The position numbers and the translations under genes were made by a program. The notes under the pieces were generated by a model, which was not told the DNA's origin, searched no databases, and worked only from the letters and a program-made list of their open reading frames with translations. A stretch of 64,000 nucleotides of DNA from Escherichia phage EcWhh-1: the sequence record MH791409.1. One strand, given 5' to 3'. This document shows positions 8,246 through 40,785 of this stretch, piece after piece. How positions within the stretch are numbered: position 1 is the stretch's first letter; the number at the start of each line of letters is the position of its first letter.

Positions 8246-8995
8246 TTAACCTCTAATCAGTGAAAAAATTGAAGCATTCAGCGGAAGACCTTTTTTCAAC
8301 TTCAATTTGTCAATAAAAGAAAGGTGTTCTAAACGCTCCAGACCTTGAATAATTTTATCATACATATCGTAACGCGTTTCTGCTTCAGACAATTTAAACT
8401 TGACACGCCAGTCAGGTCCACCAATTAAAGATTTAAGACCTTTTTCCATAGTACCGATTGAAGCATTAGAACCGTGGATACGGGCCTTAACTGCGATAAC
8501 AGAAGGAGTCTTATCAGTAGCTCCTGATTTAATAAGGTCTTTAAGACGTTTTTCACGTTTTTTAAGACCTCTTTGGGTATCTTTTATATTTTTAACGATT
8601 TTACGGATTTTATAATAATTATCAGGGGTAACTTTAAAACTATTAGGCATTTTAGAACTACCTGAAATACGAACTGCTAAACGAGTCTGAGCACGTTTCA
8701 GTTCATCAAGGGACAAATCGGCACGTAAGCTGTTATACTTAACTTTAACTGGGATTACATTACCCTCAATATAGCCGATATCGTTGTTAAAACGTTCAAA
8801 TGAAATCTTATCATTAACTGAATTTTCATCAAAGTACTCGCCTGAATAAGCGCACACTTTTTGTTCGAGAAGTCTACGAACATATTTACTAGACAGATTG
8901 AAGTCCTTACCACGTTTATAAGCAGAAGCTTTGGTGTGTTTGCGGCGGTTGTAAACCTTTAACTCAAATTCATCGTTAGTTTTAATAGTAGGCAT
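8246..8995 (-). CDS. hypothetical basic protein; possible degenerate HNH-type endonuclease motif; occupies the T4 srd position
   Basis: 249 aa, K/R-rich; segment CAYSGEYFDEN...SFERFNNDIGYIEGNV resembles the C-x-YCG ... S-x-DRID-x-x-GY-x-x-NV pattern of some HNH families; assignment uncertain. Confidence 0.35.
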   Translation of the reverse strand: MPTIKTNDEFELKVYNRRKHTKASAYKRGKDFNLSSKYVRRLLEQKVCAYSGEYFDENSVNDKISFERFNNDIGYIEGNVIPVKVKYNSLRADLSLDELKRAQTRLAVRISGSSKMPNSFKVTPDNYYKIRKIVKNIKDTQRGLKKREKRLKDLIKSGATDKTPSVIAVKARIHGSNASIGTMEKGLKSLIGGPDWRVKFKLSEAETRYDMYDKIIQGLERLEHLSFIDKLKLKKGLPLNASIFSLIRG

Positions 8996-9035
8996 GATAT
9001 TTTTCTCATCTTACGGACGATTAGTTGATAGGTCT

Positions 9036-9064
9036 ATAGTATCATGTTGCTTGATAAAGTAAAC
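9036..9064 (-). promoter_or_regulatory. early-type promoter cassette (GTTTAC, 17 nt, TG-n-TACTAT, CTATCAAC leader)
   Basis: minus strand GTTTACTTTATCAAGCAACATGATACTATAGACCTATCAAC. Confidence 0.5.
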
Positions 9065-9133
9065 ACTTTTTTGCTTTAAATTTTCAACGGTATAATGAAT
9101 CAAGGACTTTGCCTTTCAATTAAACCGGGTGGT

Positions 9134-9748
9134 TCAGTAAGAAAGAACGGAAAGATTCCAAATGGTGTAATTATTCCATTTAGGATTTCTCTCAATAGAG
9201 TCTACGCGCAGCGTAGTTCCCGCAGGGAACATCATCTCATCTTCATCATTAATTAATTGTAAGTTTGCTACACGTGTAGATTCAGGAAATGCGCCTGGGA
9301 ACTCTTCAGGGGGCGCAGCACATAACATTTTAAAGATTTCTTCCTGATAATTGTACACAAATGGCGCATCATTAATACAAAAGATATTAAATGTGCCGTA
9401 GAAGTTATAAGATGCGAAATTCCTTGCTACGTTGAAGTCTTTAGAGAAGCTCATCACACGGTCGAATTCAATTACCGCACCCACACACATTGTGGACTCT
9501 AGATACTTCAGGGTCTTTTTAGATATACCGCGATAGAGCTTATCAGGCACTACAGAAGTCAGGTTCTTACGAATAATTTTGTTCAGAGTTTCCTGGATAG
9601 AATCAGGTTTATTTTCCATACACTGCCAGAGCGTGCTCTGTTCTAAATCAGAATACACCTCATCAATTTCTATCTGAGTATTCTCACGGAAATCATCGCA
9701 TTTGGCATTGTTGATAAATTCTGCTAATTTATGGCTTGGATATAACAT
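9134..9748 (-). CDS. ADP-ribosyltransferase (ModA/ModB-like)
   Basis: 204 aa; R-S-E triad candidates: LYRGIS, SFSKDF, NDEDEMMF; tandem with a second paralog as in T4 modA/modB. Confidence 0.55.
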   Translation of the reverse strand: MLYPSHKLAEFINNAKCDDFRENTQIEIDEVYSDLEQSTLWQCMENKPDSIQETLNKIIRKNLTSVVPDKLYRGISKKTLKYLESTMCVGAVIEFDRVMSFSKDFNVARNFASYNFYGTFNIFCINDAPFVYNYQEEIFKMLCAAPPEEFPGAFPESTRVANLQLINDEDEMMFPAGTTLRVDSIERNPKWNNYTIWNLSVLSY

Positions 9749-9773
9749 ATTATTCTCCTCAGTTGATAGAAAG

Positions 9774-9803
9774 ATAGTAACATAAGCATCCTTGCCTGTA
9801 AAC
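9774..9803 (-). promoter_or_regulatory. early-type promoter (GTTTAC, 18 nt, TACTAT)
   Basis: minus strand GTTTACAGGCAAGGATGCTTATGTTACTATCTTTCTATCAAC. Confidence 0.4.
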
Positions 9804-10372
9804 TAAAAATCTAACATTTTTAAATGAATTGTTTTATACTCGATTTCGTATGGATCCCTTTTGACGGTTTCGATTGCAACAATCTCAAATCGCGATAGAC
9901 TAGAGACCATGAACTCACATTCAGTTTCAACCATATCATAGAGGTCGATACGAGATTCATCTATTTCAAGCTCATCCACATTCCCTGCAAGAACAAGGTC
10001 GATAGCATGATTGTAGTAGTCGAAAATGAACGGTGCATTCCTGAGACTTAAAATGGTTTTGGTTCCATACTCCCATGCCCCTGCGAACTGACGAGCCTGA
10101 GAGTATTGTGTACTAAAAGAAGTAACTCGACCAGGAGACCATTGACACCCTACTGAAAGGAGCTCTAATTGCTCAAGTTCTCTGGTGGTAATCCCACGAT
10201 ACAACTCTACTGGAACCGCTGAAGTAACATGCTTGCGAACCAGTTTGTCGAGGTCGTAATGGAAGTTAGGGTCTTTTTTGGCGTCCAGACATTTCTCTAA
10301 CAACGCTTGTTCAGATTTTGAAAATTTAGAATTGATTCGGTCTTGATAAAGACATTTTTGTTCGATGTTCAT
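9803..10372 (-). CDS. ADP-ribosyltransferase (ModA/ModB-like)
   Basis: 189 aa; LYRGITTRE (Arg), SFSTQYSQAR (S-T-S), ECEFMVSS (E-x-E). Confidence 0.55.
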   Translation of the reverse strand: MNIEQKCLYQDRINSKFSKSEQALLEKCLDAKKDPNFHYDLDKLVRKHVTSAVPVELYRGITTRELEQLELLSVGCQWSPGRVTSFSTQYSQARQFAGAWEYGTKTILSLRNAPFIFDYYNHAIDLVLAGNVDELEIDESRIDLYDMVETECEFMVSSLSRFEIVAIETVKRDPYEIEYKTIHLKMLDF

Positions 10373-10396
10373 ATGACCTCCAGTGATTTAGAGGTC

Positions 10397-10425
10397 ATTA
10401 TAACATGAAGGGAGGGGGTGTAAAC
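10397..10425 (-). promoter_or_regulatory. early-type promoter (GTTTAC, 17 nt, TG-n-TATAAT)
   Basis: minus strand GTTTACACCCCCTCCCTTCATGTTATAATGACCTC. Confidence 0.45.
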
Positions 10426-10679
10426 TACTTAAACACACCAAGTGGGACGCCAAACACTGCAATGTCGGCAGCCATGCCTAATGAGGATTGGGTATATGAA
10501 GTATAGGAGCTTTTTGATTCATAAGAGCTTTTTGTTTCTGGCTTCTCAGCTTCAATCTTAGGAGCTTTTGCCTGAATATTTTTTTGCTCGGTTTCCTTAC
10601 GAGCTTGTTTACGGTCGATATCCAACGCCGATGTAGGTATATTAGTTAGCCAATTCATTATTTTACCCAAGGGGCCCAA
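10425..10679 (-). CDS. hypothetical protein
   Basis: track ORF 84 aa; start uncertain. Confidence 0.3.
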   Translation of the reverse strand: MGPLGKIMNWLTNIPTSALDIDRKQARKETEQKNIQAKAPKIEAEKPETKSSYESKSSYTSYTQSSLGMAADIAVFGVPLGVFK

Positions 10680-13214: not shown

Positions 13215-13415
13215 ATGGGTAGTATTTTTTACCAAATCTGGAAATTGGCTGAAAAGAAAGACAAGAAAATGATGTTAGGTTTTCTTGCGCTAGACGTATT
13301 CCTTTGGAATCTTTTAGTAGTTCCTGTAGCCGCTAGCCAAGGGGTAATTTTACCAGCGGTTACAATGGAACACGTATTAAGCATAATTGGATTCTTTAGC
13401 GGAGTTCCTGTCTAA
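13215..13415 (+). CDS. small hydrophobic membrane protein, plus strand
   Basis: 66 aa; AGGAGG Shine-Dalgarno 6 nt before ATG; hydrophobic stretches; convergent with gene 61; the only plus-strand ORF with a strong RBS that does not lie inside a minus-strand gene. Confidence 0.45.
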   Translation: MGSIFYQIWKLAEKKDKKMMLGFLALDVFLWNLLVVPVAASQGVILPAVTMEHVLSIIGFFSGVPV

Positions 13416-14440
13416 ATTTTAGAATATTTTGAAAGCCTCATTTTTGCCATTAACCCTTGGGCTATATTAGCTTTCATATACGCCAATATATCATTTATAT
13501 CAGCTTTATCTTTCATAACCATATCATTTATATCTTTAGAAGGCCATGGAGCCTTGTCCCAGAATAGGACCCTTTCGCCGGCATCAACTAATCGTTGCAT
13601 ACGCTTAATTGTGTCAGGATGACGGGGTTCATTGTCCATTACCCAAGCACGAGTTTCTTTACATGGAACCATAGCCAAGTCCAACGACCCACCAGTAATT
13701 GCTATTGCATTAGGTACGAATAATGAATCAATAGGACCTTCCATTACCCACACCAATTGACGTTCGTCAACTGTATCCATTCCATATATTTTTGTAGCTT
13801 GGTCATGAGCTTTTATTGTAATATATTTTTGTGGAGCATCTTTACGCAAGGCTCGGCCCTGAAAACTTTCAATTTGTTTATTCTTATTGAAAATTGGAAT
13901 AACCAAACGTGGTTCAGGCATTTCTTTGGAATAGGTCCCCGGATTAACAGAATTCACCAATGCAGGCCATTCTTTAGTAAACCATAACCGATTCCATTTA
14001 TTTTCAGGAATGCACCGCAGAGTTACATACTTAATAATAGGATGGTCCTTAGGCATTCTATCTAATCGTTCACAGAAATTAAGCTTTTCGATGACAGGCA
14101 TCTTAGCTTTAATTTTTTCAGATATCTCCACCTTAGGTGCAGCTTGTCTCCCAAACGATTGCTCTTTATGTTTCTCAAGAATATATTCGCGATATAAATC
14201 AGGCTCATATTCGTATAGGTACTTCTTAATTCCTGCCGAATAATCACAGTTAAAACAGTGTAGCATTACAGAGCCGTCATTGGCCGGATAGGCCCAGAAT
14301 CGAGCTTTGTTCTCATCCTTTTGGGAGTCGCCACATACACGACAACGACAGTTTAATTTAAAATCACTACCAGTTACTTGTCTGAATTTAGGTTGGTAAT
14401 TCAAGGCACGTACAGCAAATTCTCTATCGACATATGACAT
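13412..14440 (-). CDS. 61: DNA primase
   Basis: 342 aa, same length as T4 gp61; N-terminal Cys-rich zinc finger (CRCRVCGDS...HCFNCDYS) plus TOPRIM region. Confidence 0.9.
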   Translation of the reverse strand: MSYVDREFAVRALNYQPKFRQVTGSDFKLNCRCRVCGDSQKDENKARFWAYPANDGSVMLHCFNCDYSAGIKKYLYEYEPDLYREYILEKHKEQSFGRQAAPKVEISEKIKAKMPVIEKLNFCERLDRMPKDHPIIKYVTLRCIPENKWNRLWFTKEWPALVNSVNPGTYSKEMPEPRLVIPIFNKNKQIESFQGRALRKDAPQKYITIKAHDQATKIYGMDTVDERQLVWVMEGPIDSLFVPNAIAITGGSLDLAMVPCKETRAWVMDNEPRHPDTIKRMQRLVDAGERVLFWDKAPWPSKDINDMVMKDKADINDILAYMKANIAQGLMAKMRLSKYSKI

Positions 14441-14656: not shown

Positions 14657-14848
14657 TTATATTACGAAAATAGCTTTGTCACCGTTGGCGTCAGTGACTT
14701 CGTACGTATCTTCGTGGTAAAGTGGGATAATCCAGGTCACACCATCATCAGCAATAACATGGATAGCTTCTTGGTCTTTTGATACGATTTCATATTCTTC
14801 GAACAACTCGAATACAGAAATCTTAGAGCCCGTACACATTGCACTCAT
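14657..14848 (-). CDS. hypothetical protein
   Basis: track ORF 63 aa. Confidence 0.4.
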   Translation of the reverse strand: MSAMCTGSKISVFELFEEYEIVSKDQEAIHVIADDGVTWIIPLYHEDTYEVTDANGDKAIFVI

Positions 14849-15044
14849 ATTGTTCCCTTCTTTTAATCAGTTGACGATGGGCCTTTTTAAGTTTACGAAG
14901 CTGGCGCTTAGTTGGCCGTGCAACATAAGCTTGAGTAGTTACTCGTCCAAAAACACCATACTTAGGTGAAGGAGAATCAATAAAGACTTCCCACTGGCAG
15001 GAGTAACCATATACCGCTTTAGAGAATTGAGTTAAAACAAACAT
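14823..15044 (-). CDS. small basic protein, RPTKRQ-motif family
   Basis: 73 aa with ARPTKRQLRKLKKAHRQL; paralogous to 15866..16129 and 40002..40187. Confidence 0.45.
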   Translation of the reverse strand: MFVLTQFSKAVYGYSCQWEVFIDSPSPKYGVFGRVTTQAYVARPTKRQLRKLKKAHRQLIKRREQYECNVYGL

Positions 15045-15045
15045 A

Positions 15046-15486
15046 TCAACCTCGATTCATAAAGGCATTAAAAATCTGGTCGTCAATTGAATAAACCGGA
15101 GCTTCCAGAATTTTCAACAGGCTATTTTTGATATACTTGCTAGGGATATCCATATTAACGCAGTCGTTCAATTCATTGTCCGGGAGGATATCTTTAAATT
15201 CGAATCCTTCAAATTCAACCTTGTCAGGAAAACCATCAGCGAAAAAATAAACCAATTGGTGTATTGTATTGCGCGAAAATAATTTAGACTTAACAGCAAT
15301 AAGTTCTTGCCAGTGGTTTAATTCTCTATTAAGAAGTTTATGGGCAAATACAATCCTATCATCGCTATCAACAATAAAATAACCCAGGTATTGATGGTCG
15401 TCGCTCCAATACATTCTGTATGCCTGGGCATTTGGATTTTTACAACGAAGTTTTTTGATAACCAAATTTCTGTTAATCTTATTCAC
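15046..15486 (-). CDS. hypothetical protein
   Basis: track ORF 146 aa. Confidence 0.45.
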   Translation of the reverse strand: MNKINRNLVIKKLRCKNPNAQAYRMYWSDDHQYLGYFIVDSDDRIVFAHKLLNRELNHWQELIAVKSKLFSRNTIHQLVYFFADGFPDKVEFEGFEFKDILPDNELNDCVNMDIPSKYIKNSLLKILEAPVYSIDDQIFNAFMNRG

Positions 15487-15772
15487 CTGTCACCTCTTTA
15501 ACGATATTTTTGTTATCGAAATTAGCATCACAGTACAGAACATAGTTATACTGCATAACACCGCTAGAAGCCAATTGGTCAGATACTTCTTTAACCATAT
15601 CAGGACGGTCACGTTTAGTGATGTTCATGATATCGGCATAAATCTGATGCTCAACTGCTTCTTGATCGGCAGTCATAGACCACTCACAAAGGTCTGCGTC
15701 ATAACCGGCCGTTACCGGAGCCGTGCCACATGATGCTACTGTAAGGATTGCTGCGATTAATAACTTTTTCAT
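15479..15772 (-). CDS. lipoprotein / periplasmic protein (possible Spackle-position protein)
   Basis: start moved to MKKLLIAAILTVASCG (signal peptide with lipobox); lies in the 61.x block where T4 encodes periplasmic Sp. Confidence 0.4.
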   Translation of the reverse strand: MKKLLIAAILTVASCGTAPVTAGYDADLCEWSMTADQEAVEHQIYADIMNITKRDRPDMVKEVSDQLASSGVMQYNYVLYCDANFDNKNIVKEVTGE

Positions 15773-15800
15773 TTTTAACTCCTCGTTAGTTGATAGGTCC

Positions 15801-15830
15801 ATAGTATCATTACCATAGACCATTGTAAAC
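15801..15830 (-). promoter_or_regulatory. early-type promoter cassette
   Basis: minus strand GTTTACAATGGTCTATGGTAATGATACTATGGACCTATCAAC. Confidence 0.45.
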
Positions 15831-15865
15831 ACTTATTTTACTTTAGCGTAATCTAAAGTTACTAA

Positions 15866-16129
15866 CTATGATTCCATTATCAGACGACGTTGACGACGGA
15901 GAACCTCACCGCCGACATAAGCACGAAAAGCTTTTTTGCACTGACGAATCTGGCGCTTAGTAGGACGAACAGTAAATTCGTAGAACTCTACAAAATCCAT
16001 TTCACCTTTAGTTTCCTGAGAAAGGACAAGTTCCCAGCGACTGTTAATACGATCTGCATAAATCTTATGCTTACCGAAAGACCGGTCCCAAAAGCCACTT
16101 TTAACAGGCTTCATAATTTGGATATTCAT
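15866..16129 (-). CDS. small basic protein, RPTKRQ-motif family
   Basis: start moved to MNIQIM (ATG with GAGGAA Shine-Dalgarno); contains VRPTKRQIRQCKKAFRAYV. Confidence 0.45.
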   Translation of the reverse strand: MNIQIMKPVKSGFWDRSFGKHKIYADRINSRWELVLSQETKGEMDFVEFYEFTVRPTKRQIRQCKKAFRAYVGGEVLRRQRRLIMES

Positions 16130-16130
16130 T

Positions 16131-16271
16131 TTATTCCTCGTCTTCATGTTTATGAGCAATTTCTTCGAATTCACTGTCACAGTCTAAACAGGTTGCGTTG
16201 TCCCAAGCATCAAATACCGCTTGCTCTTCACAAACTGAACAGCCGCACACTACACATTCTACTTCTTCCAT
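16131..16271 (-). CDS. small Cys-rich (CxxC...CxxC) acidic protein, not in ORF track
   Basis: MEEVECVVCGCSVCEEQAVFDAWDNATCLDCDSEFEEIAHKHEDEE; ATG start. Confidence 0.35.
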   Translation of the reverse strand: MEEVECVVCGCSVCEEQAVFDAWDNATCLDCDSEFEEIAHKHEDEE

Positions 16272-16538
16272 TTAGATTTCCTCAATGCGGGCATCATATT
16301 CAAAAACTTTATTGTCATTAACAAAGGCTTTCACCAGCGCATTATTCACTTCTGCATACTGCACCGTAACCCATTCAATCATATTTTGGTCACTAACATC
16401 CAGCGCAGTTTCTTTGGTAAACATATTACCATTTTCAAACCAACCAATAAACACTACGATCTCTTCTAATTTACGCATTTTAGATTTCCTCACAGAAGGC
16501 CCATTCAGCATGATAAACCGTGGCGCCTTTAGTATCAT
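16272..16538 (-). CDS. hypothetical protein
   Basis: track ORF 88 aa. Confidence 0.4.
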   Translation of the reverse strand: MILKAPRFIMLNGPSVRKSKMRKLEEIVVFIGWFENGNMFTKETALDVSDQNMIEWVTVQYAEVNNALVKAFVNDNKVFEYDARIEEI

Positions 16539-16809
16539 TTAAACAAACCACATCTACCGGAGCAATTACACGATAAAGACGAGGTTCTCCTCCCACTGAA
16601 CGAGCAGCTCGTCCAGCATAAATCTTAGCCAAACCGATATCTTCAGTAAAGAATACACGATTCAGGTTTTTCTTACGACCAGTTTCAGACAGAACTCCTG
16701 TTTCCTCAGGAGGACAAAGCATATTACCAATATTAGCCACACTACAACTTCCGTGATAATACACTTTATATTCTGCTTTACAGTCGATGGTTTTCATTTT
16801 GTTCTCCAA
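16480..16809 (-). CDS. hypothetical protein
   Basis: track ORF 109 aa; start may be internal. Confidence 0.4.
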   Translation of the reverse strand: MENKMKTIDCKAEYKVYYHGSCSVANIGNMLCPPEETGVLSETGRKKNLNRVFFTEDIGLAKIYAGRAARSVGGEPRLYRVIAPVDVVCLNDTKGATVYHAEWAFCEEI

Positions 16810-16821
16810 GTTGATAGGTCT

Positions 16822-16850
16822 ATAGTATCATGCCTATAGGAGATGTAAAC
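16822..16850 (-). promoter_or_regulatory. early-type promoter cassette
   Basis: minus strand GTTTACATCTCCTATAGGCATGATACTATAGACCTATCAAC. Confidence 0.5.
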
Positions 16851-16879: not shown

Positions 16880-18319
16880 TTAAAATTTGATAGATGCTGC
16901 TAAATCGTCTAAATCACTTCTATTAACACGCGACTGGCGATTGACCTCTGCTTGGCGGTTCATTTCACCTGTAGCCTCACGAACAGTGTTCACTGGACCT
17001 GGGTTAAAATCGTCTTCAACTTCATACCAACGCTGGTTTCCTTTCTTAACACCAATCTTAAATTTGTTGTAGTAGCTCTTATCACCATAACGAGATTTAA
17101 GCTGCTTAACCATCTGCATACCCATCTGAGCAAACTCTTCTGTCTCGACCACACCTAACATGAAGTCTGCAGTATGTGCAATACCAAAGGATTCAGCGAT
17201 ATCAGCCATATCGATTTCGGCGGCAACGTTCGCACCACGAGTAGTCTGGGCTGCAGTCCACAACAATAATTTCTTCTCTACTGCAAGTCCACGTAGTTCT
17301 TCGGCAACCATCTTAATCAATCCATAACTGTTTTCAGAGAAAACTTTCGTACGGGATGAAGCACAGATAGCCAAGTAGTCGACGATAACGACCTGTGGGA
17401 CAAAGTTTTGTTTGAGCTTGTATTCGTTTAATAATGCACGGAATGTATCGGCATTAGCACCACCAGTAGGGTACTGTTTAATCTTTAAACGACCTAAAGT
17501 AGCAGTTGAACGCCACTTATCCATCTTAGCTTTATATTCAGGCCATGAGACGTGACCATCATCGATATCATCCAGTGATACATCCAGAAGGTTAGCATCG
17601 ATACGCTTAGCACATACTTCCTCTGCCATCTCCATAGAGATATAAAGAACATCATAACCGGATTGAAGGTAATCAGCAGCCAATGAACACAGTCCAAGAG
17701 ACTTACCTACGTTTGTTCCTGCCAACAATACGTTTTCAGTACCAAACTCTGCTCCACCCTTAGTAATCTTGTTCAGAATATTAAGACGGAATGGAACCTT
17801 ACGTGCTTTATCGGAATAACTTTTGAATCGTTCTTCATAGTCATCCATCCAGTCATGACCTAATTCGGAATCGAAACAAATCGATAATGCATCACGCATG
17901 ATATCTGGAATAGCACCAATACCTGGAAGTTTTCTATTTTGTTGCTCAACCGGAAGGTCGGCATTAGTTTGGATTTCAATGATTTTTGAAGTTGCATTAT
18001 ACATCGCTGCTTTCTGAACGTATTTCTCCGTTTCTTTAACCAACCATTCTTGGTCTTCGGGTCCAGCATTCAGTGAGCTTAAAAGCTCTTTAGCTCCTTG
18101 ATGTTCAACTTCTGAAAGCGTACTGTTATCTAATGCAATGCTCAATGCGTTCTTAGAAGGCACTGCATTATATTCATTGACGTGTTTTTTAATTTCTTTG
18201 AAAAGGGTCTTTGCAGGACCCTGGTCAAAATATGAATCATTCATATAAGGCCAGACCTTAGTGAAATAATCACTATTGCCTAGCAGTTGAGCCAAAATAG
18301 TTTCTACCACTTCCACCAC
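16880..18319 (-). CDS. 41: replicative DNA helicase (DnaB-like)
   Basis: 479 aa; near full-length similarity to remembered T4 gp41 (Walker A GTNVGKSLG, ...LYISMEMAEEVCAKRIDANLLDVSLDDIDDGH...); annotated start codon appears to be GTG. Confidence 0.9.
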   Translation of the reverse strand: MVEVVETILAQLLGNSDYFTKVWPYMNDSYFDQGPAKTLFKEIKKHVNEYNAVPSKNALSIALDNSTLSEVEHQGAKELLSSLNAGPEDQEWLVKETEKYVQKAAMYNATSKIIEIQTNADLPVEQQNRKLPGIGAIPDIMRDALSICFDSELGHDWMDDYEERFKSYSDKARKVPFRLNILNKITKGGAEFGTENVLLAGTNVGKSLGLCSLAADYLQSGYDVLYISMEMAEEVCAKRIDANLLDVSLDDIDDGHVSWPEYKAKMDKWRSTATLGRLKIKQYPTGGANADTFRALLNEYKLKQNFVPQVVIVDYLAICASSRTKVFSENSYGLIKMVAEELRGLAVEKKLLLWTAAQTTRGANVAAEIDMADIAESFGIAHTADFMLGVVETEEFAQMGMQMVKQLKSRYGDKSYYNKFKIGVKKGNQRWYEVEDDFNPGPVNTVREATGEMNRQAEVNRQSRVNRSDLDDLAASIKF

Positions 18320-39492: not shown

Positions 39493-39966
39493 TCATTTAA
39501 GCGATTTCCTCAGTTGTTTTTTAAACGAATCGACCATTTGTTTCTTAGTGGCAGATTCATTATAAGTCATTCCATGTGAAAGCATTTCAGCAATCATTTC
39601 TTCCTTACCCAACCTGCTGAACTCTTTGGTTTTATCAGGAACGAAATTAGGATGAATATTATTTTCAGTATAATCAGCTTTCAGATAGACCAGCAAATTC
39701 TCTAACCATTCGAGGTAGTCAACGTTTTGACCTTTAAGACCAGAACGGTTGAACTTATGCTTCATTTGTCCTTCTGCAGCATTGCACAGGTTACATAGTA
39801 AACCACGAACCTTACCGGCTTTTGGCCCGTTTAACTCGTGGTCGTGGTCAAGGTGGTTACTTTGAACATCAGGGTTTAATTCACGTTTACAAATCAAACA
39901 CTTACCACATTGTGCATCATAAAGTTTTTGTTTTTCTTCTTTGTATAATTTGCCGGTCAACAACAT
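39493..39966 (-). CDS. 49: endonuclease VII (Holliday-junction resolvase)
   Basis: 157 aa; MLLTGKLYKEEKQKLYDAQCGKCLICKRELNPDVQSNHLDHDHELNGPKAGKVRGLLCNLCNAAEG... about 90 percent identical to remembered T4 gp49. Confidence 0.93.
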   Translation of the reverse strand: MLLTGKLYKEEKQKLYDAQCGKCLICKRELNPDVQSNHLDHDHELNGPKAGKVRGLLCNLCNAAEGQMKHKFNRSGLKGQNVDYLEWLENLLVYLKADYTENNIHPNFVPDKTKEFSRLGKEEMIAEMLSHGMTYNESATKKQMVDSFKKQLRKSLK

Positions 39967-40001
39967 AATAAACCCTTACCATTATTAGATAAGGGTATTT
40001 A

Positions 40002-40187
40002 TTATTTTTCAAATGTACTATAGAACGAACGATGCAACCGTTTAAATTGACGAATCATCTTTTTGGTAGGGCGAGTATACAATCCTACACAGGTGGCCAT
40101 AAACTGGTCGGTAGGACTTCCTTTGATAAGAAGTTTCCAGACCTTACTGCCATCCAACTTTTCGGTATAGACTAATTTAGTTTTCAT
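40002..40187 (-). CDS. small basic protein, RPTKRQ-motif family
   Basis: 61 aa with TRPTKKMIRQFKRLHRSFY. Confidence 0.45.
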   Translation of the reverse strand: MKTKLVYTEKLDGSKVWKLLIKGSPTDQFMATCVGLYTRPTKKMIRQFKRLHRSFYSTFEK

Positions 40188-40476
40188 CAGAACGCCTTAT
40201 CAGCAAAGCGAAGTTGAGCTTCAAGCCAATGGATATAGTCGGCTGCAGCTTTAATCAAATCGGATTCTAGGTCAGGTAAAGAACCCGAATCCGACAACTC
40301 GTAAAGCGAATGTTCAATCAGACGGCCTTTGTGACGGCCAATTTCAATTTTGGTACTCATATCCAAACTCCATATCGATTAAATCATTGTTTGAAGGTTC
40401 ATTATACTCTATTTCGGAATCGTTGTAAACCGGTTCCTCTGGCTCGGTAGTTTCCCACCGAGCGACATACCATGGC

Positions 40477-40785
40477 TTAACGGTCACACCACCAACTCGA
40501 TACTTCAAAATCGGGTTCACCATCTTCCCAGTACCAAGGGCCGACCGGGTGCCAATCGCCGTGTTCATCTTCTTCAAATTCTTCGGATTCAAGCCCAACG
40601 TATTGCCATTGGACCTCATAAGCGGTGCCACCAATTACAACAGTGTTCTCGCCATACGGGTGAGCTACAGCAAAGTCTATACCTTCTGCTTTAGCCAGCC
40701 AAACCATATATTCGTATAGTTTATATTCCAGGTCATCTTCGGTGCCATCACCTAGAAAAATGGTTTGTTCGTTTAATTCAATCAT
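40477..40785 (-). CDS. hypothetical acidic, Trp-rich protein
   Basis: 102 aa; the downstream overlapping frame continues with a similar acidic sequence. Confidence 0.4.
   Translation of the reverse strand: MIELNEQTIFLGDGTEDDLEYKLYEYMVWLAKAEGIDFAVAHPYGENTVVIGGTAYEVQWQYVGLESEEFEEDEHGDWHPVGPWYWEDGEPDFEVSSWWCDR

Follow-up and report, generated by a model that had tools for sequence, protein, structure and literature searches.

Three diverged members of the TifA family of phage proteins in the T4-like Escherichia phage EcWhh-1

Results

Genomic context of three small genes

We analyzed a stretch of 64,000 nucleotides of Escherichia phage EcWhh-1 (MH791409.1; hereafter the window), which belongs to a T-even phage of the JS98-like type (Dhakavirus) and follows a T4-like gene order with primase gene 61, 61.1, a variable stretch, spackle (sp), dmd, and helicase gene 41. 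The interval between 61 (13412..14440) and 41 (16880..18319) is 98.4% identical to the one of phage UP19, 97% to that of IME281, and 91% to that of JS98. A preliminary description of the sequence had listed three small open reading frames that share a basic block, two of them in the 61-41 interval and one next to gene 49. These are present with the sequences and placement given there, all on the minus strand: P1 (14823..15044) and P2 (15866..16129) between 61 and 41, and P3 (40002..40187) immediately upstream of gene 49 (endonuclease VII; 39493..39966). Each of the three abuts or overlaps the stop codon of the gene upstream.

P1 encodes 73 amino acids and is preceded by a Shine-Dalgarno sequence (GAGG) with a 5-nt spacer before the ATG. 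It has a 63-aa ORF on one side and a 146-aa ORF (15046..15486, minus strand) on the other, whose stop codon abuts the P1 start and which occupies the position of 61.2/adfA in T4. AdfA (T4 gp61.2) is an anti-DarT factor, i.e., it counters a DNA ADP-ribosyltransferase toxin. All that the 146-aa ORF has in common with AdfA are the last 14 residues of the latter, a C-terminal tail reading SIDDQIFNAFMNRG. As a neighboring gene with an anti-TA role in the T4 island described below, adfA is comparable to P1–P3, but it has no sequence relationship with any of them.

P2 encodes 87 amino acids (MNIQIMKP...; Shine-Dalgarno sequence GAGGA) and lies between dmd and sp as tifA does in T4, downstream of the co-directional dmd gene (16272..16478, minus strand; Pfam Dmd, E 1e-19), from which it is separated by a 46-aa ORF. 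Dmd (T4 gp61.5) is a phage antitoxin against RnlA/LsoA that works without RNA, by binding directly to the toxin protein. As a small early accessory protein of the same operon or island that inhibits a host endoribonuclease toxin, it resembles what we propose below for P1–P3, but it is unrelated to them in sequence and family (Pfam PF17587). The stretch with dmd, tifA, and adfA is regarded as a probable anti-TA island by the authors of the TifA studies, and both P1 and P2 lie inside it.

P3 encodes 61 amino acids and is located between gene 49 and a short pin homolog (40187..40366, minus strand) that covers only the C-terminal part of PinA, a member of the Lon protease inhibitor family (Pfam Inhibitor_I24, E 9.7e-7; PHROG 9092, E 4.3e-41). 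The P3 start overlaps the pin stop codon (TGATG), a weaker AAGG can be read by eye upstream of this start, and the two genes are apparently translationally coupled.

Candidate early promoters precede both dmd-P2 and pin-P3. A match to the consensus (TTTACA-16-TACTAT, with TG; 16822..16849, minus strand) follows the gene 41 hairpin and could drive orf109-dmd-orf46-P2, while another (TTTACA-17-TATAAT; 40401..40429, minus strand; 11/12 sigma-70-like positions) could drive the short pin homolog together with P3; both are consensus matches only, and such matches are no commoner than in shuffled sequence. In T4, dmd-tifA is expressed from an early promoter (PMC9391042).

The three proteins belong to the TifA family

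P1, P2, and P3 share the motif RPTK(R/K)xxRxxK(K/R), which is contained in the blocks RPTKRQLRKLKKAHR (14874..14918), RPTKRQIRQCKKAFR (15923..15967), and RPTKKMIRQFKRLHR (40029..40073), respectively (all minus strand; translations of the blocks). Six-frame translation of the window yields three instances of RPTK[RK] where 0.09 are expected, and three of PTK[RK]..R..K[KR] where 0.005 are expected from nucleotide shuffles and 0.0 from amino-acid shuffles. Pairwise BLASTP comparisons among the three proteins gave E-values of 1e-6, 2e-5, and 1e-4, with alignments that extend upstream to a conserved tryptophan of strand 2 in two of the three pairs. All three match Pfam family PF23945 (DUF7279), with E-values between 1e-16 and 1e-19 and scores of 60–67 bits where the cutoff is 24.5 bits (P1: E 9.5e-19, 67.5 bits; P2: E 9.9e-17, 61.0 bits; P3: E 2.1e-16, 60.0 bits), and they match PHROGs 3272/2375 (P3 to PHROG 3272: E 4.8e-34). 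Their membership in the TifA family (DUF7279) is therefore secure. This family had already been named and partly characterized, which is beyond the reach of a reader who has only the sequence.

The shared block is rich in lysine and arginine, which would be the obvious argument for a chance resemblance of low-complexity basic segments, and the preliminary description had itself named similarity confined to such residues, without conserved spacing in homologs, as the outcome that would speak against a family. We found the opposite. The spacing of W...(R/K)PTK(R/K)QxRxxK(R/K)xxR is fixed in family alignments of 47 and 110 sequences, so low complexity does not account for the similarity; the proline, threonine, and first arginine are invariant in the 47-sequence alignment, and the tryptophan and lysine nearly so. 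Together with the motif counts, the Pfam E-values of 1e-16 or below, and a shared predicted fold (see below), this excludes chance similarity.

Hidden Markov models built from 4 and from 110 sequences found no fourth member in the window, and an HMM scan found no further one in positions 1–112 kb of UP19, the closest relative, which correspond to the remainder of the genome beyond the window, so this type of genome carries three members. The proteins are diverged from one another, with an overall identity of only 21–28% and different loop lengths.

P2 is the tifA ortholog of EcWhh-1

A tifA locus, understood as one that adjoins dmd and lies between 41 and sp, is occupied by P2 only. P1 lies elsewhere because it is found between sp/orf146 and 61.1, and P3 sits between pin and 49. 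P2 is 42% identical to T4 gp61.4/TifA (E 1e-14; the match is also found by tblastn), and the JS98 gene at its position is annotated as 61.4. Given this similarity and the T4-like placement between dmd and sp, P2 is, by position and sequence, the ortholog of T4 gp61.4/TifA. This answers for one of the three genes which T4 ORFs they correspond to, a point that the preliminary description had left open. A Pfam hit of P2 to RT_RNaseH was dismissed as being below threshold (E 0.04–0.1).

P2 is an allele of the VR7-type class whose reading frame is cut short by an in-frame amber codon (TAG, 15866..15868) that is followed by an intact remnant tail with codons for LVTLDYAKVK and a TAA (amber and tail together 15833..15868, minus strand). 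In IME281, this codon is CAG (Gln) and the ortholog is a 98-aa protein (...LIMESQLVTLDYAKVK), while UP19 shares the TAG. The simplest reading of these sequences would be a recent CAG-to-TAG change.

The amber codon and its remnant tail, as well as the loss or replacement of genes in the dmd-sp slot of some Dhakaviruses, would fit with one or more of the three copies, chiefly P2, being decaying relics. We consider this very improbable because the truncation costs P2 only a C-terminal extension, which is naturally absent also from JS98 gp61.4 and from RB69 TifA, which inhibits ToxN more strongly than T4 TifA does, and leaves the fold region and the motif of P2 intact. For P1 and P3, relic status is contradicted by purifying selection and for P1 also by its retention among Dhakaviruses, as set out in the following.

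P1 and P3 are diverged paralogs under purifying selection

When the whole T4 genome was scanned with an HMM in six frames, gp61.4 was the only TifA-family member found, and neither P1 nor P3 hence has a T4 ortholog; the closest T4 match of P1 is TifA itself. For P3, T4 gp49.1 was considered as a counterpart and ruled out since the sequences are unrelated, and the 49.1 homolog of the window is instead the C-terminal part of ORF 40344..40634.

Between EcWhh-1 and JS98, P1 shows 18 synonymous and four non-synonymous differences (dN/dS 0.047), and it is kept in all nine Dhakavirus loci that we retrieved from IMG/VR with 93–100% amino-acid identity. P3 compared with its RB32 counterpart gives a dN/dS of 0.15.

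We modeled P1 and P3 by AlphaFold2 with family alignments. The predicted structures comprise three strands and a C-terminal helix in both P1 (E2-8, E17-24, E34-40, H46-71; pLDDT 82.5) and P3 (E2-9, E15-22, E31-36, H42-59; pLDDT 89.2), with the helix starting right after the Pro-Thr pair in each case, and this three-stranded sheet plus C-terminal helix is the architecture published for TifA. No solved structure was matched in a sequence profile search of the PDB, Foldseek against the PDB gave no informative structural analog (best E 0.93), and a search of BFVD gave only weak matches, all to uncharacterized proteins of T4-like phages. The family is also small, with 72 clusters at 50% identity and E 1e-3 or below among 1.84 billion representatives.

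Across the family, conservation peaks at the strand-2 tryptophan (4.1 bits) and at (R/K)PTKRQxR..KK..R, where positions reach 3–4.25 bits (this includes the P1 block, i.e., its helix cap and basic face), and is low in the beta2-beta3 loop (0.6–0.85 bits). The same holds within the subfamilies: variable positions in the cap and helix core number one of 15 for P1 and four of 15 for P3, compared with eight of eight in the beta1-beta2 turn of P1 and five of eight in the beta2-beta3 loop of P3. This pattern parallels the “conserved helix, variable specificity loop” described for TifA. P1 and P3 are thus diverged paralogs with a predicted TifA-like fold that are maintained by purifying selection.

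Distribution of the paralogs and turnover of their loci

P1-type genes with at least 90% identity are found in 68 records including JS98, IME281, IME341, and VR26, and P3-type genes in 354 phage records (tblastn). Orthologs of P3 lie at the same place in RB32 (RB32ORF078c) and RB69 (RB69ORF087c), and RB69 has a second short or truncated member (ORF089c) on the opposite side of pin from ORF087c, so that this phage encodes TifA and two P3-type genes. In T2, T4, and T6, pin and 49 are 41 nt apart, and a P3-type gene is absent.

The dmd-sp slot varies among the nine Dhakavirus loci from IMG/VR. It can contain a 79-aa JS98-type TifA, a 98-aa VR7-type TifA, or a second dmd-like gene, or alternatively a gene for a 187-aa secreted protein, in which case dmd and tifA are both missing.

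Phage phiE142 was examined as a possible carrier from an unrelated lineage and ruled out since its locus order of 49.1 - member - 49 - nrdD is that of a T-even phage, and we therefore make no claim that the family has spread beyond T4-like phages. Homologs in the Pectobacterium phages CB1/CB4, listed by others, are an exception to a distribution limited to T4-like phages.

Discussion

TifA (T4 gp61.4) is an inhibitor of ToxN, the endoribonuclease of a type III toxin system (Srikant 2022, PMC9391042; Guegler 2023, PMC10853763). It binds RNA via its C-terminal basic helix, which is capped by a conserved Pro-Thr pair, and requires this RNA binding to bind and neutralize ToxN, which it traps on abundant RNA, in a ribonucleoprotein complex where 16S rRNA is enriched; residues of the loops, which face ToxN, decide which ToxN is recognized (PMC10853763). 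Substitutions P53A/T54A or K55A/R56A/R59A in RB69 TifA abolish both RNA co-purification and ToxN neutralization, and such substitutions abolish co-precipitation of ToxN with T4 TifA (PMC10853763). The residues P53, T54, K55, R56, and R59 of RB69 TifA correspond to P44, T45, K46, R47, and R50 in P1, to P56, T57, K58, R59, and R62 in P2, and, with a single Arg-to-Lys change, to P40, T41, K42, K43, and R46 in P3. The motif noticed in the preliminary description is therefore the published “PT motif plus basic cluster”, and RNA binding by P1, P2, and P3 would be expected from these conserved residues. The idea voiced there that such a basic helix could have nucleic acid or a host protein as its ligand is supported by the T4 member of the family, TifA, whose helix binds RNA and which itself binds ToxN (PMC9391042, PMC10853763). 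Since TifA also binds single- and double-stranded DNA in vitro (PMC10853763), a DNA-related role would be conceivable as well.

For two of the three ORFs, close relatives have already been cloned and assayed. The “TifA homologs” in Supplementary Table S2 of Guegler 2023 include TifA_vB_EcoM_005, to which P1 is identical at 71 of 73 positions (97%), TifA_vB_EcoM_VR7, which is the 98-aa full-length form of the P2 type, and TifA_JS98, which is JS98 gp61.4 (PMC10853763). Apart from the TifA proteins of T2, T4, T6, and RB69, the homologs of this panel neutralized none of seven type III toxins, namely six ToxN homologs and TenpN; expression was confirmed by immunoblot for two inactive homologs, and the FLAG-tagged constructs that are listed are the P1-type protein and the one of CB4 (PMC10853763). 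The panel thus covers the P1 type and the full-length P2 type, and the P3 type lies outside of it.

P1–P3 resemble TifA in their Pfam family and Pro-Thr-capped basic helix, P1 and P3 in addition in the predicted sheet-plus-helix fold, and P2 in its locus near dmd. They differ from it in that P1 and P3 are encoded at other loci with no T4 counterpart for either, that P3 is shorter, has a beta2-beta3 loop of 8 residues, and lacks a C-terminal extension, that P2 is truncated in EcWhh-1, and that the assayed proteins of the P1 and P2 types inhibited neither ToxN nor TenpN.

We favor a reading in which each of P1–P3 inhibits a different RNA-targeting toxin of the host, early in infection and anchored to RNA, and judge it to be probable with some reserve. 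The proteins would consist of a beta-sheet of three strands and an amphipathic C-terminal helix with a Pro-Thr cap and a conserved Lys/Arg face, and they are probably expressed early. P2 would act as the tifA ortholog of EcWhh-1, whereas P1 from the anti-TA island and P3, coupled to pin beside gene 49, would use the same RNA-anchoring helix against targets that are most likely different host RNA-targeting toxins or defense effectors and not E. coli ToxN. Different targets are suggested by the low identity among the three proteins, their unlike loop lengths, and the failure of P1-type and P2-type proteins in the published ToxN assays; since the loops of P1 and P3 differ, these two most likely neutralize different toxins or effectors. 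The accessory nature of P1–P3 fits with their patchy distribution and the turnover of gene cassettes at these loci.

P1–P3 might instead be general RNA- or ribosome-binding factors for host takeover that, for example, act on translation or mRNA stability early in infection, with anti-toxin activity being special to the TifA of T4 and RB69. Such a role would be in line with the little sequence specificity of RNA binding by TifA, the co-purification of 16S rRNA, and the conservation of the RNA-binding helix rather than the loops across the family, as well as with the fact that most assayed homologs, including P1-type and P2-type proteins, inhibit no toxin that was tried. However, P1 and P2 are placed among accessory anti-TA genes and in a slot of cassette swapping, P3-type genes are absent from T2, T4, and T6, and P1-type genes are absent from T4. 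This accessory placement and patchy presence argue for dispensable, host-specific functions rather than for a core function in takeover, and T4 tifA mutants plate normally in the absence of toxIN. We therefore regard general takeover factors as unlikely.

The copies could also be redundant in that all of them act on the same ToxN-like toxins and merely add dosage or breadth. Dosage does matter for TifA, because T4 overcomes plasmid-borne toxIN through segmental amplification of dmd-tifA (PMC9391042), and RB69, which is little affected by toxIN (PMC9391042), encodes TifA and two P3-type genes where T2, T4, and T6 have no P3-type gene. Yet this RB69 phenotype is already accounted for by its own TifA, which is a stronger ToxN inhibitor than T4 TifA when expressed ectopically (PMC9391042). 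Moreover, copies with only 21–28% identity and different loop lengths are not what simple redundancy would predict, and E. coli ToxN and five of its homologs are unaffected by P1-type and P2-type proteins. We thus give redundancy little credence and return to inhibitors with different targets as our preferred interpretation.

More speculatively, the TifA scaffold as such may serve T-even phages as a modular anti-toxin platform, with an RNA-anchoring helix that stays invariant, loops that can be exchanged, and several paralogs per genome, each tuned to another RNase toxin or RNA-targeting defense effector of the host. We put this forward tentatively and with more doubt than conviction. If true, EcWhh-1 would carry three such paralogs (P1, P2, and P3) and RB69 another three, and the neighborhood of pin and gene 49 would constitute a second anti-TA locus. 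P3-type genes could then share in phenotypes that have been credited to TifA alone, e.g., the insensitivity of RB69 to toxIN.

Published work already covers the TifA/DUF7279 family together with its motif and mechanism. In the literature, we found no paper that contains “DUF7279”, none on several or three diverged TifA homologs in one genome, and no later functional paper on other members of the family, and the word “paralog” is used in neither of the two TifA papers (PMC9391042, PMC10853763). What appears to be new is modest, namely a single genome that carries three diverged paralogs, and a conserved short subfamily by pin and gene 49, which RB69 has and T2, T4, and T6 lack. Compared with T4, Dhakaviruses and RB69 thus have two extra diverged genes of the TifA family, which are candidate inhibitors of other RNA-targeting defense toxins and call for caution where host-range phenotypes have been attributed to tifA alone.

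TifA-family genes beside pin and a hairpin before gene 49

The third of the TifA paralogs in the window, P3, lies between gene 49 and a short homolog of the Lon protease inhibitor gene pin (40187..40366, minus strand; PHROG 9092). The product of the latter, with only 57-59 amino acids, is equivalent to the last third of T4 PinA and matches the Pfam family Inhibitor_I24 at positions 88-136 of 136.

TifA-family genes also adjoin pin in other T-even phages. In RB69, pin is flanked by two extra members, ORF087c and the short or truncated ORF089c (9772..9951 and 10376..10516 of locus L035), and a metagenomic T-even contig (L032, 10497..10674) carries a pin-like ORF with a short TifA-family gene on each side. 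The gene-49-adjacent copy on this contig appears frameshifted, perhaps through decay into a pseudogene or through an error in the assembly. No TifA-family gene is found beside pin in T2, T4, or T6. The type III toxin-antitoxin system toxIN, whose toxin ToxN is inhibited by TifA, is reported to give strong protection from T2, T4, and T6 but weak protection from RB69 (Srikant et al. 2022, PMC9391042); a text search of the same article found a tifA knock-out for T4 only and none for RB69. The two extra RB69 genes might contribute to this difference.

Directly after P3, the minus strand can form a stable hairpin (39972..39996; -15.5 kcal/mol, z -3.35) with an extended stem spanning about 39960..40005, the 3' arm of which covers the Shine-Dalgarno sequence and first start-codon bases of gene 49. 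In early transcripts of T4 gene 49, a hairpin occludes the ribosome-binding site, and the hairpin of the window resembles this structure. Given this likeness and the position of its 3' arm, the hairpin, which had been called "terminator-like", may instead be a translational control element.

Truncation and variable gene content between genes 61 and 41

The tifA ortholog P2 is terminated by an in-frame TAG at a position where the related phage IME281 has CAG (Gln), while downstream the former reading frame continues undamaged for ten tail codons to its original TAA (15833..15868, minus strand). This TAG is also present in UP19, and the simplest reading is that P2 lost its C-terminal extension by a recent nonsense truncation.

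Between P2 and dmd lies an ORF for an acidic, cysteine-rich protein of 46 amino acids with two CxxC pairs (16131..16271, minus strand; PHROG 13952, unknown function), which is annotated in UP19 and not in JS98, though the JS98 sequence encodes it. Gene 41 is followed by a promoter-like site, and the first gene beyond this site is a 109-aa ORF (16480..16809, minus strand; PHROG 2110) that is kept throughout the examined Dhakavirus loci; it is labeled "nucleotidyltransferase" in some records and has no Pfam match.

Among the Dhakavirus loci L013-L021, the dmd-sp slot (locus positions about 8300-9300) is a variable cassette site between conserved flanking genes. It can contain a JS98-type or VR7-type TifA, a second dmd-like gene encoding 113 amino acids (L017), or, in L021, a 187-aa signal-peptide protein with neither dmd nor tifA.

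The position of T4 61.2/adfA is occupied by a 146-aa ORF (15046..15486, minus strand; PHROG 8539) whose C-terminal 14 residues (SIDDQIFNAFMNRG) are identical to the tail of T4 AdfA, and beyond this tail the two proteins share no similarity. Furthermore, L017 encodes a tandem pair of ORFs that each terminate in ...SVDDQIFNAFMKR(D/G). From this common tail and the like endings of the tandem ORFs, the AdfA-type tail appears to be a conserved tail or junction at which N-terminal modules have been swapped.
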